A DNA stretch of 64,000 nt. Source: an uncultured Gammaproteobacteria bacterium (GTDB lineage Bacteria; Patescibacteriota; Patescibacteriia; VMEV01; CAYQCH01). The DNA lies in assembly GCA_964503955.1 (NCBI GenBank), contig CAZDCG010000001.1, forward strand, positions 237,804 to 301,803. The letters run 5' to 3'. Below the pieces are notes generated by a model. It worked only from the letters and a program-made list of their open reading frames with translations, searched no databases and was not told the DNA's origin. Positions 2,329 through 52,508 of this stretch are shown here, in pieces. The position numbers and the translations under genes were made by a program. Each line of letters starts with the position of its first letter. Position 1 is the stretch's first letter.

Positions 2329-4147
2329 GACGATTAGCATCACAATCAGCGGGCAGCTCTTCCACATCGAGGAAGAAGCCTACAAACGATTAGACGAATA
2401 TTTGCGCTCTATCCGCCAGCATTTTTCCACGTTTGAAGGCCACGAAGAAATCGTTGCCGACATTGAAGCGCGCATCGCCGAACACTTTGAGGAACGCTTA
2501 ACCGGCAAACAAGTACTCTCCGTCGCCGATGTTGATGACTTGATCTTAAATATGGGCACGGTCAACGATTTTGCCGAGTTTGAAGGCGAAGGCGGCAAAC
2601 AAGACCGCGAGGAGGAACGCAAACGAACAAAAAAACTCTACCGTGATCCGGATGACAAAATCTTGGGCGGTGTTGCCGCCGGTTTGGCAGCCTACTTTGG
2701 CCTTGATACGACCTTGGTGCGTCTGATCTTTGTGGTTGCGGTTTTAACAGGCGGCTGGGGAATCCTCTTGTATCTGATCCTCTGGATTGTCACCCCTGAG
2801 GCAAGCACCACCGCAGAAAAGGCGCATATGCGCGGCGAACCCGTGACGCTTTCTTCGATAGAACAGAAAATCCGCTCCGCCATGCCTAAACGAGACGGCG
2901 CAGATAACGGCCTTAAAAAAAAATTGGTTGAACCGCCGCTGAATCTGATTGCGCGCCTATTCAACTGGATCGCGGAAGTTATCCGTGTCATCGTCCCGTT
3001 CATCGGCAAAGTTATCGGCTTCTGTGTCACGCTCGGGGCCTCCATCGCTCTATTCTTTCTCACCTTCGGCTTTATCACCTTCATGGTGAACGCCGATTCG
3101 CAGTATGTCGATTTTCCGCTGCAATCAATTGTGGCGCCCACGGTGTTTTATGCCGTCAGCATTGCCGGCTTGATCGCCGTATTTGTGCCGCTGCTATTTA
3201 TCCTGCTGGTCGGTTCTTCCCTGCTAAAAGGGAGAAGCGCATTTTCCACCACGGTGGTCGGCAGTCTGATCGCGTTATGGATCACGGCCTTGATGGTTGG
3301 CGGCGTTACGGCATTCTCTGTCGCGCCAGAATACCGTGAAAAGTGGCTGGCGCAGGAATCAACACGCGTAGAGACGGATAAGCTGTTTGAAATAACGGAG
3401 TTTAACAACATTGAACTGTCCAATGGCTTTCGCGTGAACGTACAACAAGGTGATGCTTTTGCCGTCAGCGCGTCAGGCGACATGGAAGAACTCGACCACC
3501 TGCGCATCTTTGTGGAAAATGGCGTACTGCGAGCTGAACGAGAGGCATTTGATCGCCCATGGAGGCTCTGCTTCTTCTGCTTCCGTAACCGCCAGGTGAC
3601 GCTAGATGTGACCGCACCAACCCTGCAGGGTATCAGTGCGGAAAACGGAACATCTATCCGTGCAGAAGGATTTACGTTAGAAGCATTAACGCTTTCGGCA
3701 CGCAATGGTTCTCGCCTTGAAGTAATCGCCGATGCAACAACGATTGATGCCGATGTCAGTTCAGGCTCGCGGCTGATCCTGAACGGAAACAGTGAACAGG
3801 CTGACTTGCGTCTGAGCAATGGATCACGCATCGAATGGACTGGTGGCGTAAACCGCGTCAAGACTGATATCAGCAGCGCTTCCCGTCTGATCCTTGAAGG
3901 AACGGGCAATGACCTGAACGCGAAAGTTTATAACGGCTCCGTATTGGACGCCATCGATTTTATCTCCCAAACCGCAACGGTGAATGCAAGCTCGGCCAGT
4001 TCCGCGCATGTGCATGCCACAACCAAACTTGATCTTCGCGCAACCAATGGCAGCCGCATTGACTATGCTGATACCGGCATCGTACCAACAAAAGAAGTTT
4101 CTACCGGCAGCCGCATCCAGGTAATTGGAGGAGAGTATTACGAATAG
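2321..4147 (+). CDS. PspC-domain membrane protein with C-terminal DUF4097/DUF2807 beta-helical (putative adhesin, YvlB/LiaG-like) repeats
   Basis: PspC motif (KKLYRDPDDKILGGVAAGLAAYFGLDTTLVRLIFVVAVLTGGWGILLYLILWIV), several TM helices, then repeated NGS(R)(I/L) beta-strand motifs. Its ATG overlaps the padR stop by 8 nt. Confidence 0.75.
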   Translation: MNKTISITISGQLFHIEEEAYKRLDEYLRSIRQHFSTFEGHEEIVADIEARIAEHFEERLTGKQVLSVADVDDLILNMGTVNDFAEFEGEGGKQDREEERKRTKKLYRDPDDKILGGVAAGLAAYFGLDTTLVRLIFVVAVLTGGWGILLYLILWIVTPEASTTAEKAHMRGEPVTLSSIEQKIRSAMPKRDGADNGLKKKLVEPPLNLIARLFNWIAEVIRVIVPFIGKVIGFCVTLGASIALFFLTFGFITFMVNADSQYVDFPLQSIVAPTVFYAVSIAGLIAVFVPLLFILLVGSSLLKGRSAFSTTVVGSLIALWITALMVGGVTAFSVAPEYREKWLAQESTRVETDKLFEITEFNNIELSNGFRVNVQQGDAFAVSASGDMEELDHLRIFVENGVLRAEREAFDRPWRLCFFCFRNRQVTLDVTAPTLQGISAENGTSIRAEGFTLEALTLSARNGSRLEVIADATTIDADVSSGSRLILNGNSEQADLRLSNGSRIEWTGGVNRVKTDISSASRLILEGTGNDLNAKVYNGSVLDAIDFISQTATVNASSASSAHVHATTKLDLRATNGSRIDYADTGIVPTKEVSTGSRIQVIGGEYYE

Positions 4148-11579: not shown

Positions 11580-13061
11580 ATGGCGGATGTTGAAAGTTTG
11601 TATCAACAGTTCATACAAACAGTCCGCAAACATAATCCGGACGCGGATTTTGCGCTTCTTGAAAAAGCGTTTCAATTCTCAAATGAATGCCACAAAGGGC
11701 AGATGAGGCAGAGCGGTGAACCGTATATCATCCACCCTACCCTTGTTGCGACAAATCTTGCCAGACTCAATATGGACTCGCCGGCTATTGCCGCGGGTCT
11801 TTTGCATGATGTGATTGAAGACACCGCCACCACGCCTGACCAGCTTGAAGAGTTGTTTGGCAAAAGCGTACGCGAACTCGTGGAAGGCGTTTCAAACCTG
11901 CGCCGCATCCGTTTCAGCAATAAAAGCCAGTACATCGAAAATCTGCGCAAAATGTTTGTTGCAACAGCCAAAGATATCCGCGTTATCATCATCCGTCTTT
12001 GCGACCGTCTGCACAATATGCAGACATTGGAGTATCTTACGGCCGAGCAGCAGCATCGTATCGCGCTTGAAACGCTTGAAATCTACGCCCCGATCGCCCA
12101 CCGGCTCCAAATGGGACAGCTTCGCGGCGAATTGGAAGACTGGGCATTTAAATATTTGCACCCGGAGGAGTACCGCTGGCTCTATAATGTCACTCGAAAG
12201 AATTTACAGGACAATGAAGTCCGCCTGAATCGTACCAGCGGACGCATCCGCGAATTGCTCGAACGCGAACAGATCCAGGTGGTCAATATTCAGAAGCGCA
12301 TCAAGTTTTTGTACAGCCTGTATAAAAAACTCCAGCGTTATGACAATGACCTATCGCGTATTTACGATGTCGTCGCGCTCCGCGTGATCGTCCCAAAGGT
12401 AGCTGACTGTTACGCGGCCCTAGGAATCATTCATCGTGAGTTCAAACCAGTGAAAGGACGTATCAAAGACTATATCGCCCGGCCGAAAACGAACGGCTAC
12501 ACGTCGCTGCATACCACCGTTATCATTGAAGAAGGACATATCATCGAAGTGCAAATACGCACCCCTGAAATGCATGAGAAAGCGGAATACGGTATCGCGG
12601 CCCATTGGCTGTACAAAGACGGCACGAATTCACAGCGCCCGATTGAAATCTCCTGGGTCAAGGAGCTGGCAAGACTCATCCAGGAAATTCGCGATCCGAA
12701 TGATTTTGAATCAATGAAGATCGATTTGTTCAATCACCGCATTTTCGTGCTGACCCCCCAGGGAGATGTGATCGATCTGCCTGAAGAAGCCACCCCGGTC
12801 GACTTTGCCTACCACATCCATACCGATGTCGGAAATCAAACAACCCGAGCCAAGGTCAACGGGGTTGTCCAGCCGCTTGATGCAAAACTGCAGAATGGAG
12901 ATATCGTGGAGATTATCACGGACAAGAAAAAAACCGGGCCGGATATCGAATGGCTCGATTTCGTCAAAACACATTTGGCTATATCAAAGATCAAATACTA
13001 TAACCGCAAACGTTTAGCGAAGTGGAGAGACAAGCTGCAACAGACAAAGAACTCCTCTTAA
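11580..13061 (+). CDS. rel: RelA/SpoT-family (p)ppGpp synthetase/hydrolase, short form (HD + synthetase + TGS, no C-terminal ACT/RRM)
   Basis: HD domain (HPTLVATNLARL..LLHDVIEDT), synthetase region (RIKDYIARPKTNGYTSLHTTV) and a TGS domain (VLTPQGDVIDLPEEATPVDFAYHIHTDVG). It ends after TGS at about 494 aa. Confidence 0.8.
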   Translation: MADVESLYQQFIQTVRKHNPDADFALLEKAFQFSNECHKGQMRQSGEPYIIHPTLVATNLARLNMDSPAIAAGLLHDVIEDTATTPDQLEELFGKSVRELVEGVSNLRRIRFSNKSQYIENLRKMFVATAKDIRVIIIRLCDRLHNMQTLEYLTAEQQHRIALETLEIYAPIAHRLQMGQLRGELEDWAFKYLHPEEYRWLYNVTRKNLQDNEVRLNRTSGRIRELLEREQIQVVNIQKRIKFLYSLYKKLQRYDNDLSRIYDVVALRVIVPKVADCYAALGIIHREFKPVKGRIKDYIARPKTNGYTSLHTTVIIEEGHIIEVQIRTPEMHEKAEYGIAAHWLYKDGTNSQRPIEISWVKELARLIQEIRDPNDFESMKIDLFNHRIFVLTPQGDVIDLPEEATPVDFAYHIHTDVGNQTTRAKVNGVVQPLDAKLQNGDIVEIITDKKKTGPDIEWLDFVKTHLAISKIKYYNRKRLAKWRDKLQQTKNSS

Positions 13062-15133
13062 GCTAATCCCTTGATACCTTCGTGCCGGGTCATCCCATCA
13101 CGAGGGATGGAAACATAAAACGTAGAACCTTCTCCTTCAACCGATTTGAACCAGATTTCACAACCGGCCTGCTCAAGCACTTTCTTTGTTGTATAAAGAC
13201 CAAGCCCCGTTCCCTCATGCGCAGACGTATTAGATGCCCTGAATAATCGGCTAAAAACCTTCTCCTGATCTTTTTTAGGGATGCCGATTCCCGTATCGGA
13301 TACCGTCAGTTGAATGTAATTGGCCACATGATGCATCCCTAAGACAATCTTACCTTGCTTGGGAGTGAATTTGACGGCATTCGAGATAAGATTACGAAGA
13401 ACCACTGACATAATTTGCGGGTCAACCAGAATCCCCCCAATAGAATCGTCAAACTCCTTCTTGACATTGATTTTTTTCTGCTTGATTTGCGGTATGAATT
13501 CAAGCAGCGTTTTTTCAAAAAGATGCTTTGCATCAACAATTTTAGGCTCAACGGCGATCGTTCCAAGATCGATGCGAGAAATATTCAACATCCCATTGAT
13601 AAGTTCATTCATCTTATCTGCAGCCATGATCATGGTTGATAACATGTCATGTTGCTTTGTTGATAATTTGCCGGCATCTCCATTGATCAACAAGTCTGCG
13701 TAACCACGAATCGCCGTAAGCGGCGTTCGCAGCTCATGTGAAGCAAGTGAAATGAATTCTTTGCGAAGTTTCGCCAGTTCACGTTCTTTTGTCACATCTC
13801 GAAATACCAGAATAGCTCCCCTCACCCGGCCTTCATCATCAAAGAGCGGCGCGCATGAATCAGCCACGGGCAACTGTGCCCCTGATCGTGTGATCAGGAG
13901 CGTGTCGTTTTCCATATCATGTTGTTTACCATACAACATGGTTTCTTCAATAAAGCGTATATTCTCCTGCTGGTCGTCTGCACGAACAAGTTTGAGGTAC
14001 TCTCGCAGCGGCCTGCCCAGCACTTCAGACGCTTTCCAGCCGCTGAGCTCCTCAGCCATATGATTCCATAAGGTGATATTCCAAAAACGATCAATGGCGC
14101 AAACACCGTCTCCAATGCCCTCCAAGTACACCTGATTTACCTGGCGGTATCCATCAAGCAAATTGACGAACCTGATAAGCAAATACGTGATGAGCAATGC
14201 GATCAGAGCAATCGTTGCATAGACCACCCCGAGATTTTTCAGTACATTTGTCCTGATCAGAAAAAAATCCTGATAGTGGGACAGGATCATCACTTTCCAG
14301 TCAAAACCCGGAACCGGTGCCCAGGACAAAAAAGCATCCGTATTCGACAATGGATTCCTCACCTGAACGCCGGAACCCTCCAAGTGAAGCCCAAGACTCT
14401 CAAGGCTAGCTGTAGCTGCCTCATTCAGAGAGGTCGATTTGTTTACTAATGCGTTATTTCCGTCGATATAGTAAAATTCTCCACTAAACGTTGCTTGCAG
14501 GGAAAAGCTTGCATCCGTCAAAACCTGGGGCAACATTTGAAAGACGAGGATACCAATGGGTTGAGCAAGGCTGTTTTTTATCGGGATGGCAACGGCAATC
14601 ACATCCTTCTGCGGCTCAGCGCCCCTTTCATAAATCGAGCTGACATATGGTTCCCAGTCCAGGCTCACCCCATGATACCATTCACGATGTGCATAGTTCT
14701 GCCCCACCCCGCCTCTCAGTAAAGGAAAAGCGGCAAGCTCATTACCCTCTGTATCCGTTAAAAAAATCCGGTCAATATACGGTGAATCGTTGACCAGCGG
14801 TGCCAGCTGGTTGGCCGCCTCCTCCCAACGTTGCTGCGTGACAAGGACATGAATAGCGGGATTAGCGGAAAGGATATCTGAACCCTGCGTAATAAGTTTT
14901 TCTAAATCTTCGCGCAAATGTCCGGCAAGGATGCGGACTTCATCTTCTTGCCGCTGAACTGTCAAATATGTGAGCTCTGTATATGCTGAATACAGACTGA
15001 ACACCGCAAGCAAAACAACGGGAGACAACCCGATCGTATAAAAAAAGACGTGAACCAGCCACTTGTATTTGCCGCGGGTCATCATCAAGGATGTAATGCG
15101 GTCAAGCAGGCTCTTTTTCATCATCCCCCTCAT
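13058..15133 (-). CDS. sensor histidine kinase (extracytoplasmic Cache-like sensor, PAS, HisKA, HATPase_c)
   Basis: Two TM segments flank a periplasmic sensor domain. H-box (LASHELRTPLTAIRGYADLL) and N/G-box ATPase motifs (NLISNAVKFT...DTGIGIP...GTGLGL). Confidence 0.85.
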   Translation of the reverse strand: MRGMMKKSLLDRITSLMMTRGKYKWLVHVFFYTIGLSPVVLLAVFSLYSAYTELTYLTVQRQEDEVRILAGHLREDLEKLITQGSDILSANPAIHVLVTQQRWEEAANQLAPLVNDSPYIDRIFLTDTEGNELAAFPLLRGGVGQNYAHREWYHGVSLDWEPYVSSIYERGAEPQKDVIAVAIPIKNSLAQPIGILVFQMLPQVLTDASFSLQATFSGEFYYIDGNNALVNKSTSLNEAATASLESLGLHLEGSGVQVRNPLSNTDAFLSWAPVPGFDWKVMILSHYQDFFLIRTNVLKNLGVVYATIALIALLITYLLIRFVNLLDGYRQVNQVYLEGIGDGVCAIDRFWNITLWNHMAEELSGWKASEVLGRPLREYLKLVRADDQQENIRFIEETMLYGKQHDMENDTLLITRSGAQLPVADSCAPLFDDEGRVRGAILVFRDVTKERELAKLRKEFISLASHELRTPLTAIRGYADLLINGDAGKLSTKQHDMLSTMIMAADKMNELINGMLNISRIDLGTIAVEPKIVDAKHLFEKTLLEFIPQIKQKKINVKKEFDDSIGGILVDPQIMSVVLRNLISNAVKFTPKQGKIVLGMHHVANYIQLTVSDTGIGIPKKDQEKVFSRLFRASNTSAHEGTGLGLYTTKKVLEQAGCEIWFKSVEGEGSTFYVSIPRDGMTRHEGIKGLA

Positions 15134-15140
15134 AGACTCA

Positions 15141-16040
15141 TTACGTCAGCTCGTTAAGCAGACGCTGCAATTCTTCACGGGAATAAAAGTGAATAGTGAT
15201 TTGTCCTTTCTCGCCCGTTTTTTTGATTTGCACCTTGGTCCCGAGCCGCTCACGCAGCATTTCTTCCTGGGCTTCCCGCACAGGATCAAAGCTCATACCG
15301 GAATTGGTTCGCTGGTGTTTCCTTACCGCACGCGTCGCCTGCTCAAGATCGCGCACGCTCAATTTATTTGAAAGTGCTTCCTGGGCATATTTTTTCTGCT
15401 CCTCTGAAGAATCAAGACTGGCCAGAACCTTCGCATGCCCTAAGGACAGCTTGCCCTCAGACACGGCTGTCTGAATATCAGCCGGCAAATCAAGCAGGCG
15501 CAGGATATTGGCAACCGTAGAGCGGCTTTTTCCAAGCCGTTTGGATACTTCTTCCTGCGTGAGATTGAATTCAGACATCAGGCGCTGATACGCCTGCGCT
15601 TCTTCAAGAGGGTTCAGGTCGGCGCGCTGGACATTTTCCACGATTGCAAGCGCCATTTTATCGTGTTCGCTTGCTTCCCTTACGATCGCCGGAACTTTTT
15701 TTAATCCCGCAAGCTTTGACGCGCGCAGACGACGTTCGCCGGCAATCAGCACATGCTTGCCTTGCGCATCCGCAGGCATAACAACCAGAGGCTGAAGAAC
15801 ACCATGTTCTTTGATGGATGATGTTAATTCCTCAAGCGCATGATGATCAAAATGTTTTCGCGGCTGGTGCGGGTTTGGCAAAATAAGATCAAGCGACACC
15901 TGATGCACCTGGTCTTTTGGATCGATTTGCTGCTCTGCCGCAATGGATGCTGGAGCAGACGAAGACCGCGAAGCAGCCGCTTCTGCCGGCTTATTTGGAA
16001 TAAGTGCTCCTAGTCCTTTGCCTAATCCTTTCATTGCCAT
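15141..16040 (-). CDS. parB: chromosome partitioning protein ParB (Spo0J)
   Basis: The ParB N-terminal box (PNPHQPRKHFDHHALEELTSSIKEHGVLQPLVV...GERRLRA) and an HTH. Confidence 0.85.
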   Translation of the reverse strand: MAMKGLGKGLGALIPNKPAEAAASRSSSAPASIAAEQQIDPKDQVHQVSLDLILPNPHQPRKHFDHHALEELTSSIKEHGVLQPLVVMPADAQGKHVLIAGERRLRASKLAGLKKVPAIVREASEHDKMALAIVENVQRADLNPLEEAQAYQRLMSEFNLTQEEVSKRLGKSRSTVANILRLLDLPADIQTAVSEGKLSLGHAKVLASLDSSEEQKKYAQEALSNKLSVRDLEQATRAVRKHQRTNSGMSFDPVREAQEEMLRERLGTKVQIKKTGEKGQITIHFYSREELQRLLNELT

Positions 16041-16042
16041 AC

Positions 16043-16807
16043 TTAAAATTGATGCGCTAAAAATTCTCTCGCCAGCCGGTCATAGGCTTTCGCCCCCTTT
16101 GAACGCGCGTCATATGCGAAGATGGAAATGCCATGGCTTGGCGCTTCCGTCAGACGCACATTGCGTGGAATCGCCGTGCGGTATACGTAATACGGAAAAT
16201 GCTGATATAACTCTTCAAGCACCTGCTGGGAGAGGCGGTTGCGTTTATCAAACATGGTAATCACCGCGCCGCGGACTTTGAGCTCGGGCTTGAGGTGCTG
16301 CTGGACAAGGCTGACGGTCTGCAAAAGCTGCCCTAGCCCTTCCAGGGCATAATACTCGGACTGCACGGGAATAAGGACCTCGTCGGAAGCGACAAGCGCG
16401 TTGACCGTGAGCAAGCCCAGTGCCGGCGGACAGTCGATGAGTACATAATCGTAGTCATTTCGTATTTCAAGAATCTGGCGAGCCAGCTGGAATTCGCGCT
16501 GTTCCATATCCGCCATTTCCACCGAAGCCCCGGCCAGATCCAAATTCGCCGGAGCCAGTTTGTAGCCATGATGCGTTGTTTGCATAATGACATCTCGAAA
16601 GGATTTCTGCCCGATCAAAACTTCATACATGCCATGCGATAAATTCCGGTAATCCACGCCCAGGCCTGATGTTGCGTTTGCCTGCGGATCAAGGTCAATC
16701 AGCAAAACAAATTTTCCAAGAGCAGCCAAAGCGGCCCCAAGATTCACCGCGGTTGTAGTCTTACCCACCCCGCCTTTCTGATTGACAATAGAGATCACGC
16801 GTCCCAT
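16043..16807 (-). CDS. parA: chromosome partitioning ATPase ParA (Soj)
   Basis: Deviant Walker A (KGGVGKTT) and the ParA/MinD fold. Its stop abuts the parB start. Confidence 0.85.
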   Translation of the reverse strand: MGRVISIVNQKGGVGKTTTAVNLGAALAALGKFVLLIDLDPQANATSGLGVDYRNLSHGMYEVLIGQKSFRDVIMQTTHHGYKLAPANLDLAGASVEMADMEQREFQLARQILEIRNDYDYVLIDCPPALGLLTVNALVASDEVLIPVQSEYYALEGLGQLLQTVSLVQQHLKPELKVRGAVITMFDKRNRLSQQVLEELYQHFPYYVYRTAIPRNVRLTEAPSHGISIFAYDARSKGAKAYDRLAREFLAHQF

Positions 16808-16962
16808 AGAGTAGGCTTTATTATACTTGAAAAGCGCGGCTTATACCAAATTCTGCTTTGACAAAAAACTGTGGATTTTGTAAAGTCCAAGCGACCTCAG
16901 CCAAAGAGCAGAGGTTTTTCTTTTCCGTCGGCCGCGGTGACGGAATCGTTTGTCATGACTGG

Positions 16963-17047
16963 TGGGCGAATGGCGGAACTGGTAGACGCGCACGACTCAA
17001 AATCGTGTGTCTTCGGACATGAGGGTTCGAGTCCCTCTTCGCCCACC
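16963..17047 (+). tRNA. tRNA-Leu (anticodon CAA), type II with long variable arm, CCA encoded
   Basis: Acceptor GGGCGAA/TTCGCCC, anticodon stem CACGA/TCGTG with loop CTCAAAA, variable arm GTGTCTTCGGACATG, T-arm GAGGG-TTCGAGT-CCCTC, then A + CCA. Confidence 0.8.
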
Positions 17048-17078
17048 AGTAATGATAAGCGCACGCCTGTCCGCCTCC

Positions 17079-17137
17079 GGCGGAACTCAAAATCGTGTGT
17101 CTTCGGACATGAGGGTTCGAGTCCCTCCCGCGCTACC
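17079..17137 (+). repeat. degenerate tandem copy of the 3' two-thirds of tRNA-Leu(CAA) (anticodon loop to CCA), possible integrase att scar
   Basis: GGCGGAACT followed by CAAAATCGTGTGTCTTCGGACATGAGGGTTCGAGTCCCTC is identical to the tRNA, but D-arm/anticodon 5' stem residues (GGTAGACGCGCACGA) are deleted and the acceptor 3' strand differs (CCGCGCTACCA). It lies 31 bp after the intact tRNA. Confidence 0.6.
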
Positions 17138-17215
17138 ACAAGGCGCTCGCAATTGCGAGCGTTTTGTTTTTGACAAAAGCTCAGCCTCCTCCTACTCTGC
17201 GATTTGGAGGAAGGC

Positions 17216-17767
17216 ATGAACAAAAATCAGGCTCGCGAACAGGCACGCTTGCTGCTTGGCCTTGGCGGAATGTACTGGGCTGTTGTTCAGGATCTTGCAG
17301 ACGGTCCACGCATGAAGATTCTGAATTTCTGCCACACCTTCCACGACTTTCTGGCTTGCGAGCGCCATCAGAAAAAAGGCGAACGGACATTAAACATCCT
17401 GCGCCGCAAGCTAAGTACCTGGAATCTTCGCCTTGGTATGTCCAGACCAGAAATCGAAGAACTGCTTGGCCCCTGTGCACATACCGGCAACCTCAGGCTC
17501 AAAGAGTACCTGAAGCGGCGCCCGGTCTCTGACCTGTATCAGAGCTGCATCAAGAGCATTCATGGCACCAAACGGAACATCGACCGAATGCTCTCGACGA
17601 AAGGGATCAATGATCTTTCAACGCTTTTGGCTATTCCCTACAAGAGGATGCGCTCCCACGACCGCTGGTGTATCCTGAAGATTCTTCTCCCGCTCAACCT
17701 GAATGTCGGGATGACAGCCGAAGAAATCCGGCTCGCGCTGGATTTGGAAAACGAAGAGGCCCGCTGA
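17216..17767 (+). CDS. hypothetical protein
   Basis: GGAGG ribosome-binding site 5 nt before ATG 17216. No recognisable domain. It lies between the two tRNA-remnant loci. Confidence 0.4.
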   Translation: MNKNQAREQARLLLGLGGMYWAVVQDLADGPRMKILNFCHTFHDFLACERHQKKGERTLNILRRKLSTWNLRLGMSRPEIEELLGPCAHTGNLRLKEYLKRRPVSDLYQSCIKSIHGTKRNIDRMLSTKGINDLSTLLAIPYKRMRSHDRWCILKILLPLNLNVGMTAEEIRLALDLENEEAR

Positions 17768-17927
17768 TGTGTTATCGCGGGCCTTCTTGCTTGCAAAATA
17801 TCTGAATTTATGATAGATTCGTTCATGAATGAAACGCGCGTTTCTCCTACGCCGTTTTTTGTTCACAAATATCTTATCGCTCATTTCTCCACGCATTTAA
17901 CCAGTTTAGCTGCATAAACTTGTTCAA

Positions 17928-18003
17928 CGCGGGGTAGAGAAATTGGCATCTCGCCAGGCCCATAACCTGGAGATTCCCGGTTCGAGTCCGGGCCCCGCAA
18001 CCA
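17928..18003 (+). tRNA. initiator tRNA-fMet (anticodon CAT), CCA encoded
   Basis: CGCGGGG...CCCCGCA-A-CCA with the C1:A72 mismatch typical of bacterial initiators. Anticodon loop CCCATAA, T-arm CCCGG-TTCGAGT-CCGGG. The D-arm is short (GAG/CTC). Confidence 0.7.
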
Positions 18004-18242
18004 AAAGTGCGCCACGACAAGTGGTGCATTTTTGATTGTGGGTGGACTCGCGGGGATGTTAAGGGGGCAGCGCCCCCTTATATTCCGGGGGTGACAGTGA
18101 ACCTGAGCTTGCGAAGGTGAACGCCAGAGGGGCGCAAGCCCCTATGGAGAGGTCGACGAATGAATTGAGTCGACCGAGAGTCCGGGCCCCGCAACCAAAA
18201 GACCGCCACGTAAGTGGTGGTTTTTTGATTGTGGGTGGACTA
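17984..18242 (+). repeat. two ~65-bp direct repeats (17984-18048 and 18178-18242, ~90% identical), each = last 20 nt of tRNA-fMet + terminator hairpin + GATTGTGGGTGGACT; the 130-bp spacer starts with CGCGGGGA
   Basis: Direct sequence comparison. Each copy carries a CCACG-nnn-AGTGG hairpin plus a T-run. The region between a second CGCGGGG and the second ...CCCCGCAACCA forms a tRNA-like frame holding a ~120-nt insert. Confidence 0.6.
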
Positions 18243-18252
18243 GAACCGGACA

Positions 18253-18325
18253 AGACTCACAGACAAACATTTGTCTGTGATGTCTGCCAAGTCTGCGAGT
18301 CTTAAAAGTCTGTCTATCTAGTCTG
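18253..18325 (+). promoter_or_regulatory. candidate operator module upstream of rhodanese gene: palindrome AGACTCACAGACAAA-cat-TTTGTCTGTGAtGTCT followed by GTCTG half-sites phased ~9 bp
   Basis: GTCTG/GTCT at 18273, 18282, 18291, 18299, 18308 and 18321 (spacing 9, 9, 8, 9, 13). The same module recurs at 60918-61048. Confidence 0.5.
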
Positions 18326-18383
18326 TCTTGAGCGGATTAGATATACTTACCCTGATGCAACCTGTTATTCAATCCGCGAATAT

Positions 18384-18776
18384 ATGTCTGAAAATGTCAC
18401 CCTTATCAACCAGGAGGAATCTGAAAAAGGTCTGCCTGAGCAGCTTCCCTGCGAGGCGCTTTGGCAGCTCGAACATGCCGGCGAGCGTCCCAATATTTTA
18501 GATGTCCGCGAGCAGGATGAATGGGATGCTGGCCATATTGAATGGGCAACGCATCTTCCTCTCAGTAATGTGCGTGAGCAGGTTGAAAAGATTTTTCCAA
18601 ATAAAAATGAATTGATCATCTCCTGCTGCGCTTCCGGCGGACGGTCGGCAAAAGCGGTCGATATCATGAAAGAATTGGGATACACGAATGTCAAAAATTT
18701 AATCGGCGGATACACCGGATACTGCGGCCGCGAAGACAACCCGGAGGAAATGCTTTCCGATGAGGAAGGAGCTTGA
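18384..18776 (+). CDS. rhodanese-domain sulfurtransferase
   Basis: ILDVREQDEWDAGHIEWATHLP...IISCCASGGRSAKAV carries the rhodanese active-site Cys loop. Confidence 0.8.
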   Translation: MSENVTLINQEESEKGLPEQLPCEALWQLEHAGERPNILDVREQDEWDAGHIEWATHLPLSNVREQVEKIFPNKNELIISCCASGGRSAKAVDIMKELGYTNVKNLIGGYTGYCGREDNPEEMLSDEEGA

Positions 18777-18835
18777 CTCAAGACTAACTAGACTAGCTAG
18801 TTGAGCCAGACGAAGTCCGGCAACGTTTATAACTT

Positions 18836-19765
18836 ATGCATTGGTTCTTTGACGCCATCATTTTCGGATACCTTTTGTTTTGCTTTCCGGCTGTTTACTG
18901 GCTCGCCACCGGAATGAGAAAACGCATTTCCCCCCGTATGGCGGGCATCATCACCTTCTGGCTGATTGCAGGATGGATTACTATTTTTTACGGCAGTTTT
19001 GTTGAGCCGAGAATGATTGTGGAACATGAACAGGAAATCGAACTGATCCAAGGAGACGATCAGCCGTTTACCATTGCCGTGCTTTCTGATTTGCATGTCG
19101 GTCCGTATAGAAAAGAACATTCAATCATGCGTCTGGTTGAAAAGATTGAAGAACGGAATCCGGATGCTGTTGTTCTGCTTGGAGATTTTGTGTACAAATC
19201 AGCCGAAAGCCTGCCTGAGCTCTCCCCTCTCTACTTCCTCAGCGAGTCATATCCTGTTTTTGCCGTTCTTGGAAACCATGATTACGACTTGTCCGGCAAC
19301 CAAAAAGAACCGAATGATGAACTGGCCGTAAAGGTACGCGCCGCACTAAAAACGCTTGGCGTCACTGTCTTGGAAAATGACGGGCTTCCAATTGCAAATG
19401 GCAGGCTGTACCTTGCCGGCCTGCAGGAAATCTGGACGCATCGAACCGATATCGATGCTGCATTGCAAACCAATATCGAAGGCCTGCCCGTGATCGCTCT
19501 CGCACATAACCCTGATACGGTGGCCGCCTACACGGAACGCCACGATATCGCTCTGACACTTTCCGGGCATACGCATGGAGGACAGATCCGTCTTCCCTTC
19601 ATTGGACCCGCGGGCATCATTCCAACCGAGCTTGGCCAGAAAATCGATAAAGGATTGTTTACGATTAACAATCATCAAGTCCTCATCACTTCAGGCGTTG
19701 GCGAGAGCGGCCCTCGCGCGCGGCTTTTCAATCCGCCTGAAATCATTTACCTGACCATCAAATAA
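18836..19765 (+). CDS. membrane-anchored metallophosphoesterase (calcineurin-like, YkuE/MPP family)
   Basis: N-terminal TM helices and the MPP motifs DLHVGP, GDFV, GNHD, GHTHGG. Confidence 0.8.
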   Translation: MHWFFDAIIFGYLLFCFPAVYWLATGMRKRISPRMAGIITFWLIAGWITIFYGSFVEPRMIVEHEQEIELIQGDDQPFTIAVLSDLHVGPYRKEHSIMRLVEKIEERNPDAVVLLGDFVYKSAESLPELSPLYFLSESYPVFAVLGNHDYDLSGNQKEPNDELAVKVRAALKTLGVTVLENDGLPIANGRLYLAGLQEIWTHRTDIDAALQTNIEGLPVIALAHNPDTVAAYTERHDIALTLSGHTHGGQIRLPFIGPAGIIPTELGQKIDKGLFTINNHQVLITSGVGESGPRARLFNPPEIIYLTIK

Positions 19766-19773
19766 AAAAGAGC

Positions 19774-19806
19774 GACCCCCCGCAAGCCAGAGCCGAGCGG
19801 GGGGTC
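19774..19806. terminator. strong GC hairpin after the phosphoesterase gene
   Basis: GACCCCCCG-caagccagagccgag-CGGGGGGTC. The A-run precedes it on the plus strand, so it is oriented for minus-strand termination. Function uncertain. Confidence 0.35.
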
Positions 19807-20062
19807 ATTGATGTCTGCCGGGGGATCGAGTGAACCGGCAGTGGGAGTAAGATCTCAGAGCGCGTGGGGAAGCGCGCCTTTCAATCTCCACCAGCAGAAA
19901 CGATCTGCTCTCCCTTGCCCACCGTAGGAGGCCACTGTGAGCGGTTTCTTTTTAGCAAGTCTGGAGTATTTGGTCAAACGACCGTAAAACGTTGACAAAA
20001 GGCGTTTTGAATGGCATTATGGAATTCAGACGCATACCTGTGCGTCTTTGTTTTCATATCAT

Positions 20063-20138
20063 GGCGGTGTAGCTCAGCGGTTAGAGCGATGCCTTCATAA
20101 GGCAGAGGTCGGTGGTTCAAATCCACCCACCGCTACCA
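20063..20138 (+). tRNA. tRNA-Met (CAT) elongator type (or tRNA-Ile2 lysidine; indistinguishable by sequence alone), CCA encoded
   Basis: GGCGGTG acceptor, D-arm GCTCAGCGGTTAGAGC, anticodon loop TTCATAA, T-arm GGTGG-TTCAAAT-CCACC. Confidence 0.8.
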
Positions 20139-20140
20139 CG

Positions 20141-20172
20141 AAAAAATCGCACGTACTCGGTGCGATTTTTTC
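20141..20172 (+). terminator. terminator after tRNA-Met
   Basis: AATCGCAC-gtactcg-GTGCGATT hairpin followed by TTTTT. Confidence 0.6.
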
Positions 20173-20712
20173 GTGGAAATTGACGACATGTTCCGCAAGA
20201 TAAAAATAAGACCGTAGGCAGATCACTCCGCCTACGGCCGTCTAACATTTTAGCGGCAACGTTGATACCTAAAAGTTGCAAAAGATTGCCTTCGCCTACT
20301 GAGGGCGAAATTGATTTCGTCCCTGGATTTGCCAGGCCCGAAACACAGCGTTCGATTTCAGTTGCTTAGCTTTCTGAGCTAAGTCGGGACGCGTTTCCCG
20401 CCAGACCCGCTCGAGCAGGTCCGCTAAATCCTGGTGCTTTTCTTTCTTCAAGACATGCTCCTTTGTCTCAGATTGAGACAGCTTCAATCTAGCGTGCTAT
20501 CGCTGAAAAGACAAGAGCGATGAACAATCGCCAGCCAACAAAAAACCAGCAGACTTCTGCCGGTTTTTTGTTGACGGCCTTCTTGTCTTTCTCGGATGAC
20601 TCCAAGATTGTTCAAGAAAGCCGCTCCGGCTTACTCGCGCCTTGCGCGCTTTCATGCCGGCTCGTTTTCGCACGATTTTTCCGTTTTTGTCGTGTGAAAC
20701 GCATATCCCTCC

Positions 20713-22065
20713 TTATACCCCGGCTTGTCCGGTTCTGAAGAGGGACTTGAACCAGCCAAATACCCCGGCCGCCCCGTTCTGCTGGCGCCTGGAGCGCCTG
20801 GTCAGCAGATCCGTGATCATCTGATTGGGCGATGGCCGGCGGGCGGGATCCTTGGACATGGCCTGAGCGAGCACATCGCTGAATCCCTTCGTGACTCCGC
20901 CATTGGTGGCAAGAATCGCCGGCTTGGGATCCTTCGCCTTGATCAGGCTGATATGATCCTGCAGATTCATCCCCACAAGCGGAGGATGGCCGGTCACCAC
21001 ATGGTAGAGGGTCGCAGCCACGCCGTAGACATCCGTCTTGCTGTCTACGCGCGCGCCGTCAGCCTGTTCGGGAGCCATATAGTGCAAGGTTCCAAACCCT
21101 TCGCCTTCCTGCGTCAGGGTTTCAAGCACCTTCTCGGCATCCGCGTCTTGCAGCGAAGCCGCTTCCAGCAGACGGTACGGCGAAGGGCCGTCGGTCTTAT
21201 TGCAGCGGGCCTCGCCAAAGTCGATCAGGACGGCCTTGAGATTCTCCAGCAGGATCATGACATTGGCCGGCTTGATGTCGCGGTGGACGATCCCATGCTG
21301 CTCAGCCACCACGATGACCGTAAGCAGCTGGACGCCGATCTTGATAGCCGATTCCTCGGTCAGCGTCCTGCTTGCTTCAAGCACGCTCTTGAGCGGAATC
21401 CCCATGGCCTGCTGCTCGATCACAACGAGGCCGTACTCAGGATCCTCGATCAGCTCGTACACCTCGGGAACACTCTCAAGATTCGACAGCCTTCGCTGGA
21501 TCTCAAATGCCCGGCGCACGCGCCTTGCGGCCAGACGGCCGTCATCACTGTTCACCGAAGTCGCCGGCGTGAGCTTGAGAGCCACTTGCTTCTTGTGCTG
21601 CAGATCCTGAGCCGCGACCACGATGGAGTTGGCACCTGAACCAAGCAGCTCAAATACCCGAAAGCGGTCAAAAAGCACCGGCTTGCGCCCCATCTGAACG
21701 GTCCAACGCAACCGGGCATCATTGCAGGCATGCTTGAACGCATCCTCCGCAACTTTCCCCGACATCTGCAATGCGTCCGCCAACGGAACGGTATCCGCTT
21801 CATCCGACGTATCGGGCAGCAGCGTACCGTTGGACTTGAGAGCGGACAAGCGCCTTCTCCTCGAAGATGCCGACCTGGCCAGCCTGTCCGGCAGAACCAG
21901 CGTCATCCGCTCATCCACCGCGATCACCTTATTGCAGGTAATGCAGGTGAATGTCCTGGAATTAGGGTCGAGCTCCTGGCGGATTTGCAGCAGGGAATAG
22001 CTCTTCCCCTTGCAGGCGGGGCACCACTGGTATTGTGGCGGACCCGTCTCACTCTGAAGTTTCAC
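20713..22065 (-). CDS. cytoplasmic Ser/Thr protein kinase with N-terminal zinc-ribbon
   Basis: CPACKGK...CITCNK zinc ribbon, Hanks kinase motifs (VALKL, HRDIKPANVMI, DFGEA, APE). GTG start with a strong AGGAG ribosome-binding site. Confidence 0.8.
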   Translation of the reverse strand: MKLQSETGPPQYQWCPACKGKSYSLLQIRQELDPNSRTFTCITCNKVIAVDERMTLVLPDRLARSASSRRRRLSALKSNGTLLPDTSDEADTVPLADALQMSGKVAEDAFKHACNDARLRWTVQMGRKPVLFDRFRVFELLGSGANSIVVAAQDLQHKKQVALKLTPATSVNSDDGRLAARRVRRAFEIQRRLSNLESVPEVYELIEDPEYGLVVIEQQAMGIPLKSVLEASRTLTEESAIKIGVQLLTVIVVAEQHGIVHRDIKPANVMILLENLKAVLIDFGEARCNKTDGPSPYRLLEAASLQDADAEKVLETLTQEGEGFGTLHYMAPEQADGARVDSKTDVYGVAATLYHVVTGHPPLVGMNLQDHISLIKAKDPKPAILATNGGVTKGFSDVLAQAMSKDPARRPSPNQMITDLLTRRSRRQQNGAAGVFGWFKSLFRTGQAGV

Positions 22066-49079: not shown

Positions 49080-50516
49080 ATGAAGGATCCTTTCTCTGAC
49101 AAATCCTGGCCGTTTATCGATTCTCTGCTCAAAGCTTTCCCTCAAGCGGAGGTTTTCCTCGTGGGAGGATCGGTTCGTGACGCTTTGCTTGGCCGCCCGC
49201 AAAAGGATGATGATTTTGTCGTCCGCGGCATTGAACTTGAACAGCTCTCTGCCGCATTAAGCGAGTTTGGCAAAGTAAACCTGGTTGGCAAACGATTCGG
49301 CGTCATCAAATTCCGCCCGCATGACAGCCAGACAACCTATGACATTGCCCTGCCGCGCACCGAAAGCTCCCGCTCGTTTTCAGGGGCATATCGGGATTTC
49401 GATATCCAATCCGACCCGCATTTGCCCATTGAACAGGATCTCGCACGCAGGGATTTCACGATCAATGCCATGGCATTTGATTTACGGACAAAGCAGCTTG
49501 TCGATCCTTTTCTTGGCCGCAAAGATCTTGAGGACAAAGCCATTCGCGCTGTTGGTTCCCCAGCTCTTCGTTTTCAGGAGGATTACTCACGCATGCTGCG
49601 CGCGATCCGTTTTGCAAGCCAGCTTGGCTTCGCTTTGTCTGAAAAAACATCATTGGCCGTAAGAAAACTTGCTCCTCATCTTAATGACCGCATCGACAAT
49701 GAATGGGTGGTTTCAAGAGAAATCATCGGACAGGAATTCTTAAAATCATTCGACGCTTCGCCGCTCAATGCTCTGCGGCTGCTGGACGAATATCAAATAC
49801 TTGCGATTATCCTCCCCGAACTCAAAGCTCTGCAGACAACGGAGCAAACGCCTCCCTATCACCACGAAGGTACGGCATATGATCATGTGATGCTTGCGCT
49901 TAAAGCCACCGAATCGCCGGAGTATCAAATGCATTTCCCCAAGCCGCTTCCTCTGCTCAGCAAACTTGGCATTCTGTTTCACGATATTGCCAAACCGCTG
50001 ACTCCAAGCGTCGATAAAAAAGGACAGATCCATTTTTACGGGCATCAACACAAAGGCGCTGAACTCACCGCCGCCATTTGCCGACGCCTGCATTTCCCTG
50101 CCTCCTTATACGCAATTGATTGCGGCGATCTTGCCTGGATCGTGAAGCATCATCTTTTTGCCATTTCCGATTTCCATCAGCCGGCCCCTCTCACCACCCT
50201 TGAAGAGCTCTTCTTTTCGAAACGCCCCGGTGAAAGCCTTCAGCATGTTATCCTTGCAGATCTGATGGCCTCAAAAGCAGATAAAGGTATCAAGCGAGTA
50301 GAACTGTTTACGAGGTTGAAACAGCGCCTCAACGGGCTGGCTCCTGACGGAGTCTTGCCCGATCCTTTCTTGTCCGGCGATGATGTGATAGAGTTGCTGC
50401 ACATTAAACCGGGCCCGAAAATCAAGGAGATTCTGCTTGATCTGCGGGAACGCCAGCTGAAACGGGAGATCAAAACCAAACAGGAGGCGATTGATTACCT
50501 AAACGCATCAAAATGA
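49080..50516 (+). CDS. cca: CCA-adding tRNA nucleotidyltransferase with HD domain
   Basis: Pol-beta superfamily head (VFLVGGSVRD..LLGRPQKDDDF), TINAMAF, and RDFTINA...RF.ED..RMLRAIRFASQLGF. Confidence 0.8.
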   Translation: MKDPFSDKSWPFIDSLLKAFPQAEVFLVGGSVRDALLGRPQKDDDFVVRGIELEQLSAALSEFGKVNLVGKRFGVIKFRPHDSQTTYDIALPRTESSRSFSGAYRDFDIQSDPHLPIEQDLARRDFTINAMAFDLRTKQLVDPFLGRKDLEDKAIRAVGSPALRFQEDYSRMLRAIRFASQLGFALSEKTSLAVRKLAPHLNDRIDNEWVVSREIIGQEFLKSFDASPLNALRLLDEYQILAIILPELKALQTTEQTPPYHHEGTAYDHVMLALKATESPEYQMHFPKPLPLLSKLGILFHDIAKPLTPSVDKKGQIHFYGHQHKGAELTAAICRRLHFPASLYAIDCGDLAWIVKHHLFAISDFHQPAPLTTLEELFFSKRPGESLQHVILADLMASKADKGIKRVELFTRLKQRLNGLAPDGVLPDPFLSGDDVIELLHIKPGPKIKEILLDLRERQLKREIKTKQEAIDYLNASK

Positions 50517-52461: not shown

Positions 52462-52474
52462 AACGAATTCCAAT

Positions 52475-52508
52475 CAAAAAACCTGCTTTTGTAAGCAGGT
52501 TTTTTGAT
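52475..52508. terminator. bidirectional terminator between rplS and tRNA-Leu(GAG)
   Basis: AAAAAACCTGCTT-ttgt-AAGCAGGTTTTTT. Confidence 0.65.

Follow-up and report, generated by a model that had tools for sequence, protein, structure and literature searches.

What is the second, broken frame that follows the initiator tRNA gene at this locus? In the 64-kb stretch of contig CAZDCG010000001.1 analysed here (the window), an intact tRNA-fMet gene and its terminator are followed by a 149-nt tRNA-like element, which encloses hairpins where the arms of a tRNA would be. The reading that we favour, with moderate confidence, is that the element is a lineage-specific, strain-variable and decaying tandem copy (pseudogene) of the tRNA-fMet gene module, i.e. 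the tRNA together with its palindromic terminator. The duplicated stretch starts at tRNA position +1, ends 6 nt beyond the terminator palindrome and follows the first unit without a gap. Remnants of the adjoining parent gene are retained in collinear order: CGCGGGG at the repeat boundary (7/7 positions), ATTCCGGG of the T-stem (7/8) and the 3' end (20/20, or 59/65 with the terminator). The same reading is supported by the absence of the element from relatives and from one strain contig, by the lack of canonical tRNA or transfer-messenger RNA (tmRNA) features, by a stem-breaking single-nucleotide polymorphism (SNP), by a decayed tRNA-Leu copy nearby and by the lack of further copies in the window and in the collections searched. 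Fragments that look similar in two other genomes of the candidate phyla radiation (CPR) point the same way. The element is a real feature and most likely falls into the known class of tRNA-gene remnants, with an unusually well preserved acceptor/T frame. Fragments of tRNA genes beside intact genes are a documented and widespread class (van der Gulik et al., 2023; PMC9897764).

Anatomy of the second tRNA-fMet frame

The first-pass annotation, made from the sequence, described an intact tRNA-fMet followed by two direct repeats of about 65 nt, each with the tRNA 3' end and a hairpin/T-run. The repeat search and blastn confirmed this arrangement, and the coordinates are listed in Table 1. The intact gene, a tRNA-Met(CAU), has the hallmarks of an initiator, the C1xA72 mismatch and A11:U24. 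The segments 17984–18016 and 18178–18210 correspond to each other (94%), as do 18019–18048 and 18212–18241 (93%). Over the full 65-nt repeat, blastn gave 90.8% identity (59/65 positions, a 1-nt indel, E = 7e-16), and the sequence GATTGTGGGTGGACT occurs exactly twice in the window, at 18034 and 18227. The annotated coordinates of the first repeat hold; the second was placed one nucleotide too far, to 18242, and ends at 18241 because of the 1-nt deletion in the hairpin loop.

Table 1. Positions of the tRNA genes, repeats, terminators and parts of the tRNA-like element in the window.
Feature	Position	Strand	Evidence or remark
Degenerate tRNA-Leu(CAA)-like copy, 81 nt	17058–17138	+	9 nt downstream of intact tRNA-Leu(CAA), 16964–17048; ~1 kb upstream of the element
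Intact initiator tRNA-fMet, anticodon CAU, CCA encoded	17928–18003	+	ARAGORN; Rfam RF00005, 56.7 bits
Direct repeat copy 1: last 20 nt of tRNA-fMet, terminator t1, GATTGTGGGTGGACT	17984–18048	+	
Terminator t1: stem TGCGCCAC/GTGGTGCA, loop GACAA, five T	18004–18042	+	sequence; long hairpin in fold
tRNA-like element, 149 nt, probably a degenerate second tRNA-fMet copy	18049–18197	+	fold; no tRNA/tmRNA/Rfam match
5' acceptor strand CGCGGGG = tRNA positions 1–7 (7/7)	18049–18055	+	sequence, fold
Hairpin 1: AAGGGGGC-AGC-GCCCCCTT, perfect 8-bp stem	18061–18079	+	fold
TCCGGG, T-stem 5' strand, pairs with 18181–18186	18084–18089	+	fold, pair probabilities
Hairpin 2, weak (ACCT...AGGT), GTGAAC repeats on its flanks	18097–18122	+	fold
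Hairpin 3: CCAG-AGGGGC-GCAA-GCCCCT-A-TGG, GCAA tetraloop	18124–18147	+	fold
Hairpin 4: GGTCGAC-GAATGAATTGA-GTCGACC, perfect 7-bp stem	18151–18175	+	fold
Direct repeat copy 2: T-loop GAGT, T-stem 3' strand, acceptor 3' strand, ACCA, t2, GATTGTGGGTGGACT	18178–18241	+	
Terminator t2: stem ACCGCCAC/GTGGTGGT, loop GTAA, six T	18198–18235	+	

The differences between the repeats are confined to the terminator hairpin. Two base pairs are changed on both sides (TG..CA versus AC..GT), and the loops are GACAA and GTAA. Pairing between GATTGTGGG and the tRNA 3' end CCCGCAACC lengthens terminator t1 into a long palindrome. In t2, one of the six T closes the stem as the final A–T pair. In the closest relative (L048), the terminator stem of tRNA-fMet is exactly that of t2, and the stem of another relative (L004) differs from this type solely by wobble-compatible transitions. 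Thus, t2, which lies on the tRNA-like element, is of the ancestral type, and t1, which lies on the working tRNA, is divergent and derived. According to a check of the nine tRNA genes of the window, long palindromic terminators that span the CCA end and A/T tracts follow several of them, tRNA-fMet among these. This accounts for the presence of GATTGTGGG, the complement of CCCGCAACC, in the repeat. Perfect palindromes of this kind are found, for example, at 20139–20175 and 52467–52508, where the CCA end and an A-tract pair with a T-tract and TGG (CCACGAAAAAATCGCAC...GTGCGATTTTTTCGTGG). As such stems include the CCA end, the 3' trailer can sequester the tRNA 3' end.

The 129-nt interior between the repeats begins with CGCGGGGA at 18049, and contains GGGGGCAGCGCCCCC (18063–18077, unique in the window) and GAGGGGCGCAAGCCCCT. 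The element starts with the 5' acceptor strand of the tRNA, and ends with the T-stem 3' strand, the acceptor 3' strand and ACCA. The second acceptor-stem frame around about 120 nt of hairpins, also described at first pass, is confirmed. The probability of finding the 7-nt acceptor strand by chance anywhere in the 129-nt interior is ~0.008, and at the exact repeat boundary ~6e-5. The long-range helix UCCGGG (18084–18089)/UCCGGG (18181–18186) reproduces the tRNA T-stem pairs 49–53/61–65, and its 5' context ATTCCGGG matches the tRNA sequence ATTCCCGG at 7/8 positions. Hairpin 1 is placed between the acceptor and T-stem 5' strands, where the D and anticodon arms belong, and hairpins 2–4 are all inside the 'T-loop' of the element. 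Three of the four hairpins have perfect stems. The second copy has thus retained both strands of the acceptor stem and of the T-stem, as well as ACCA and the ancestral terminator, and the four hairpins replace the D-arm, the anticodon arm and the T-loop, which are all missing from the sequence.

The isolated element folds with a minimum free energy of -69.4 kcal/mol (z = -4.3). The acceptor stem is formed by 6 bp and the C1xA72 mismatch, with pair probabilities of 0.91–0.95; the four core T-stem pairs have 0.79–0.80, and the two flanking G–U pairs 0.32–0.46. A functional small RNA, in which the acceptor/T-stem minihelix of tRNA-fMet serves as a handle for processing and stability, would show such a fold. 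According to this explanation, a polymerase reading through the weaker t1 (five U) would transcribe the RNA together with tRNA-fMet, RNase P would release it at 18049, and ACCA at 18197 would be its end. Such an RNA, with four hairpins on display and a GNRA tetraloop on one of them, would be a natural counterpart of an engineered 'tRNA scaffold'. The stable fold is in its favour (acceptor pairs above 0.9, core T-stem pairs at ~0.8), as is the fact that precisely the two strands of each stem, ACCA and the terminator were kept, with the rest replaced. Both unit boundaries also coincide with functional ones, the RNase P site at one side and the terminator-palindrome end at the other, and the differences between t1 and t2 are compensatory. 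However, the minus strand folds nearly equally well (z = -4.07), which indicates that palindromes in the DNA, and not a structure particular to the RNA strand, account for the stability. A promoter scan of the plus strand detected no promoter-like site in the element or just upstream of it, so an RNA of this kind would have no promoter of its own. The fold of the whole transcript is dominated by the terminator palindromes and is uninformative on the cloverleaf. Together with the evidence from searches and strains given below, we regard a functional small RNA as unlikely.

Comparison with known RNA classes

At the Rfam gathering thresholds, only the nine tRNAs were matched in the full window; for RF00005, the threshold for a canonical tRNA is 29 bits. 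Rfam 15 was also searched at E<=10 with the 4.5-kb region and with the isolated 206 nt, and the element remained unmatched by all families, including those of tRNA, tmRNA, Y RNA and ribozymes. ARAGORN with default settings, with introns of 0–200 nt allowed and in tmRNA mode called the true tRNA only, and nothing on the element. At thresholds of 70–80% it gave spurious calls only, some of them on the reverse strand.

These results dispose of several candidates. A canonical tRNA is rejected, as RF00005 has no match to 18049–18197 at E<=10 and the default ARAGORN run is negative. An intron-containing or permuted tRNA-like gene, which had been proposed at first pass, is ruled out by the lack of a D-arm and an anticodon loop and by the negative ARAGORN intron runs and Rfam searches. 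A tmRNA is ruled out by C3–G70 in place of G3:U70, and by the negative results of the ARAGORN tmRNA mode and the Rfam tmRNA clan. The models of mascRNA and of the Tymo tRNA-like structure gave chance-level scores only, and these on the tRNA-Leu-like copy, not on the element.

The element resembles the tRNA-like domain of tmRNA in that the 'top half' of acceptor and T-stem and the 3' CCA are kept, and the anticodon arm is replaced. Unlike tmRNA, it has C3–G70, whereas alanyl-tRNA synthetase (AlaRS) recognizes G3:U70, and it has no local T-arm hairpin, no tag reading frame and no pseudoknots. Known tmRNAs are longer than 230 nt, and the element has 149 nt. YrlA, mascRNA and the viral tRNA-like structures are likewise non-decoding RNAs with tRNA-like acceptor/T modules, which are substrates of tRNA-processing enzymes. 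The module of YrlA, however, is internal and Ro-associated, mascRNA is eukaryotic, and the Rfam models of these families fail to match the element. The engineered tRNA scaffolds of Ponchon and Dardel reportedly carry an RNA insert in a tRNA frame, which the tRNA-processing enzymes of the cell trim and stabilize. Those scaffolds keep the D-arm and the T-arm and replace the anticodon arm only, whereas the element, as a putative RNA, is without a D-arm and a T-loop.

As for recognition, an RNA made from the element would offer no CAU anticodon to methionyl-tRNA synthetase (MetRS) and no G3:U70 to AlaRS, which is a further point against a functional small RNA. C1xA72, G2–C71 and C3–G70, all of which are kept in the minihelix of the element, are determinants for the formyltransferase. 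A scaffolded RNA could therefore serve initiator-tRNA-binding factors as a ligand or a decoy. There is a slim chance that the element, perhaps with the tRNA-Leu-like copy, represents a natural 'tRNA-scaffolded' small RNA of a CPR bacterium, in which RNase P and the 3'-end machinery excise and stabilize a four-hairpin RNA. Should such an RNA be produced and processed, it would be one of the rare cases in nature of a tRNA top half used as a handle for another RNA.

Relatives, strains and the origin of the repeat

The topoisomerase I of the window is 62–67% identical to proteins named Candidatus Uhrbacteria or Patescibacteria, which indicates that the host is a CPR bacterium similar to Candidatus Uhrbacteria. 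The element is surrounded by genes for ParB, ParA, a 183-aa protein, a rhodanese (190 bp downstream of the element) and a metallophosphatase. Using the rhodanese orthologues (56–68% identity), the same locus was found in six relatives: L004, L005, L006, L044 (= L045), L047 and L048. The order TopA, RelA, ParB, ParA, tRNA-Leu, tRNA-fMet, rhodanese and metallophosphatase is conserved. All six, with rhodaneses of 59–68% identity, have one tRNA-fMet and one terminator upstream of the rhodanese gene, without a second copy, so that one repeat copy is absent at the orthologous loci, a comparison that the first-pass annotation had called for. In L006, the interval from tRNA-fMet to the rhodanese gene holds a gene for a GIY-YIG domain protein (88 aa) and a stretch of repeated GGTTCATG motifs (3400–3885). 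The 3' flank of tRNA-fMet thus appears to be an insertion hot spot in the lineage.

The locus is identical across independent Logan assemblies from several sequencing runs (L001–L003 and L053), and near-identical in L050 and L054. According to this agreement, the locus is not an assembly artefact. In L054, which comes from a different project, the element has one substitution (18074 C>A), the only one seen in the element, and it breaks a pair of hairpin 1. From the tRNA to 18256, the window and L054 have 1 difference in 329 nt, and there are 14 differences in the 830 nt upstream and 9 in the 331 nt downstream. L050 is like the window upstream and like L054 downstream; this mosaic indicates that these strains recombine.

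The element is missing from the strain contig L051 (ENA ERZ27256727 k141_2659909; 759 bp), of which the rhodanese is 99% identical to that of the window. This contig begins inside a terminator of the t1 type (...GATTGTGGGT), followed by 35 nt and then by the shared region upstream of the rhodanese gene, in the allele of L050 and L054. At the junction, GATTGTGGGT is joined to ACTTGAGG. The 35 nt (ACTTGAGGTAAGGCCCACAGACTTATCAGACTTCA, within positions 1–70 of the contig) are not found in the window. The existence of this contig shows that the element is polymorphic among near-identical strains.

The repeat around the 129-nt interior can also be explained as the collapsed scar of an integrative element, which was one of the proposals at first pass. 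In this case, the integrative element would have inserted in the 3' part of tRNA-fMet and supplied a new tRNA 3' end with t1 (attL, the left attachment site). The original 3' end with the ancestral t2 would have been left downstream (attR, the right site), and nearly the whole integrative element would later have been deleted, with 129 nt left. Direct repeats of tRNA 3' ends are the classic signature of integration (PMC9897764). Such a repeat surrounds the interior here, and the relatives have a single copy. The ancestral terminator is found downstream and the divergent one on the intact tRNA, as predicted by a crossover within the 24-nt identical tRNA segment, and the same intergenic site holds the GIY-YIG gene insertion in L006. 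Against this explanation, the interval 13058–22065 (~4–5 kb on each side) contains no integrase or mobile-element gene, the upstream 183-aa open reading frame (ORF), tested as a recombinase, belongs to no Pfam or PHROG family, and the phage, plasmid and viral collections gave no similarity to a known element. The start of the interior with the tRNA 5' acceptor strand would be left to chance (p ~6e-5 at that position), and the repeat extends 45 nt beyond the tRNA. Precise excision would restore t2, whereas L051 has t1 with 35 unrelated nt, and is not the product of precise recombination between the repeats. The tRNA-Leu copies described below differ in both acceptor strands, which integration of the att type cannot produce. 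A scar of this origin is improbable on these grounds; neither it nor the RNA with an acceptor handle, the other proposal of the first-pass annotation, gained positive support.

The tRNA fragments and pseudo-tRNAs of prokaryotes described by van der Gulik et al. (2023; PMC9897764) are alike in that a partial tRNA adjoins a complete gene and shares a 3' direct repeat with it. They are also missed by standard tRNA finders and vary between genomes. Those fragments flank kilobase-scale islands with integrases, whereas the repeats here are 129 nt apart, with no mobile gene. Unlike them, the element keeps both acceptor strands, and its repeat includes the terminator.

No second copy of the interior was found in the 64-kb window or in 46 loci of other organisms, nor in phages or plasmids (blastn) or in viral contigs (three scans). 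The frame pattern CGCGGGR-N(110-140)-TCCGGGYCCCGCAAC had 37 matches in 185,579 genomes; none was a homologue of the element, and the species of the window itself was not among them. The matches are located in Dehalococcoidia (apparently in a coding region), in a conserved, apparently intergenic block of Arthrobacter, at the ordinary tRNA-fMet loci of two CPR genomes, one of which has a partial 3' duplicate, and in scattered single genomes. The pattern CGCGGGR-N(107-137)-GARTCCGRRYCCCGCAAC had no matches in the JGI metagenomes, and two long ORFs that cross the element had none among 5.8 and 1.84 billion predicted proteins. A functional small RNA would thus be without a homologue in the searched genomes, metagenomes and phage, plasmid and viral collections, and without an Rfam family. 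For base-pair covariation, the copies at hand all belong to one species and differ by a single SNP.

These searches also bear on a small non-autonomous mobile element, of the type of a miniature inverted-repeat transposable element (MITE) or associated with palindromes, inserted in the second copy of a tandem tRNA-fMet. The GC-rich hairpins would then be its ends. Perfect GC-rich hairpins do lie near both ends of the interior, and the presence/absence polymorphism fits a mobile insertion. However, dispersed copies are lacking: no part of the interior has a second copy in the window, and there is nothing in the other 46 loci or in the phage, plasmid and viral collections. Neither terminal inverted repeats nor a target-site duplication are present. 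We consider an insertion of this kind very improbable.

The tRNA-Leu pair and neighbouring features

About 1 kb upstream, a second tRNA gene of the window is followed by a broken copy. The intact tRNA-Leu(CAA) is without a terminator of its own. It shares with the degenerate copy a 43-nt exact repeat (16995–17037 = 17085–17127) and, further upstream, GGCGGAACT. Between the two shared segments, the copy has a 17-nt deletion of the slippage type, bounded by ACT..ACT, by which the D-stem 3' strand and the anticodon-stem 5' strand are lost. It also has an insertion of a CCGCC-TCC-GGCGG hairpin, which is an inverted copy of the neighbouring sequence. The acceptor 3' strand of the copy, CCGCGCT, is of the ancestral type and resembles that of relatives (CCGCGGT in L004). 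The acceptor stem of the intact gene, GGGCGAA/TTCGCCC, differs from the relatives in 6/7 pairs with a nearly identical core, a pattern that suggests a gene replacement. The copy ends in ACCA, followed by its own strong terminator (region to 17172), and ARAGORN calls it as tRNA-??? only at the 70% threshold.

In both the fMet and the Leu case, the intact gene lies directly upstream of a broken copy that keeps ancestral 3' features. The second broken tRNA copy nearby points to a local mutational process. As the tRNA-Leu-like copy shows plain decay, it argues against a functional small RNA, as do the absence of the element from all relatives checked and from L051, and the fact that the only SNP breaks a stem. 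A decaying tandem gene copy, which the first-pass annotation had touched on only as a 'plain structural duplication' that would contradict its proposals, is favoured by the start of the unit exactly at tRNA +1 and by the broken tRNA-Leu copy.

Tandem duplication and decay would account for the element as follows. The structure would have arisen within the lineage of this species and would still be polymorphic among its strains. The hairpins would result from deletions and from hairpin-forming insertions by template switch or inverted copying. The remnant is probably transcribed only when the polymerase reads through terminator t1. As there is no anticodon, it cannot decode; RNase P may still cut it.

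Several observations weigh against this reading. The retention of both acceptor and T-stem strands, ACCA and the terminator also fits selection for a tRNA 'top-half' minihelix. The two fully compensatory pair changes between t1 and t2 suggest that both hairpins are maintained. Random duplication of DNA would not be expected to start precisely at tRNA +1. The divergence between the window and L054 is low even with the tRNA excluded (p ~0.04); it could reflect constraint or recent spread, and the little divergence between strains would also suit a functional small RNA. The signals of selection are thus mixed, with absence from relatives and L051 and a stem-breaking SNP on one side, and divergence below that of the flanks and compensatory terminator changes on the other. 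L051 is one short contig, and its 35 extra nt fit neither a plain empty site nor a straightforward deletion from repeat to repeat. Finally, the similarity of the interior to the tRNA core (CGCCAG..GCCCnTA..TGGAGA) is suggestive but not significant (p ~0.07). Hairpin 3, which is collinear with the tRNA in this alignment, may nevertheless be a remodelled anticodon arm.

If the element is a pseudogene, the streamlined genomes of CPR bacteria carry very recent, strain-variable remnants of tRNA genes with a perfect acceptor frame. Assemblies of metagenomes would break at the tRNA repeats of such remnants, which could also pass for novel tRNA-like RNAs. The fMet and Leu cases would mark the tRNA loci of this lineage as hot spots of duplication and replacement, with decay through slippage deletions and hairpin-creating insertions.

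Other tRNA fragments were observed in two of the loci compared. In L004, a fragment like a tRNA 5' half, with the acceptor strand and D-arm (GCGCGGATAGAGCTTGGACGCTC, 3777–3800), lies between tRNA-Leu and tRNA-fMet. In a metagenome-assembled genome of Candidatus Nealsonbacteria (L009, 6979–7139), a partial copy after tRNA-fMet shares the T-arm and the acceptor 3' strand. This copy has a different hairpin resembling an anticodon arm (loop CTCAAAA) and no 5' acceptor strand.

Among the matches of the frame pattern, a conserved block of ~150 nt, apparently intergenic, was found in Arthrobacter/Pseudarthrobacter (L008, L010, L014, L019, L031, L033 and L041–L043). It is framed by CGCGGGA...TCCGGGCCCCGCAAC and contains the invariant hairpin ATTCCATTCAGCGGAAT (e.g. 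L010 6246–6394, minus strand). An Rfam search at E<=0.01 gave no match to it, and there is no clear covariation among the nine sequences.

Two further features of the window were recorded. The CCA end is encoded in 8/9 tRNA genes, despite the presence of a CCA-adding-enzyme-like gene with a PolyA_pol head domain and an HD domain at 49080–50516. The stretch between the element and the start codon of the rhodanese gene (18258–18328) has a perfect palindrome, CACAGACAAA-CA-TTTGTCTGTG, and after it an array in which (A)AGTCTG(TCT) is repeated directly four or five times. The palindrome and the array look like an operator or iteron array, and are not present in the relatives L004, L044 and L048. 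In L051, additional CAGACT copies in the opposite orientation are located on the left side.

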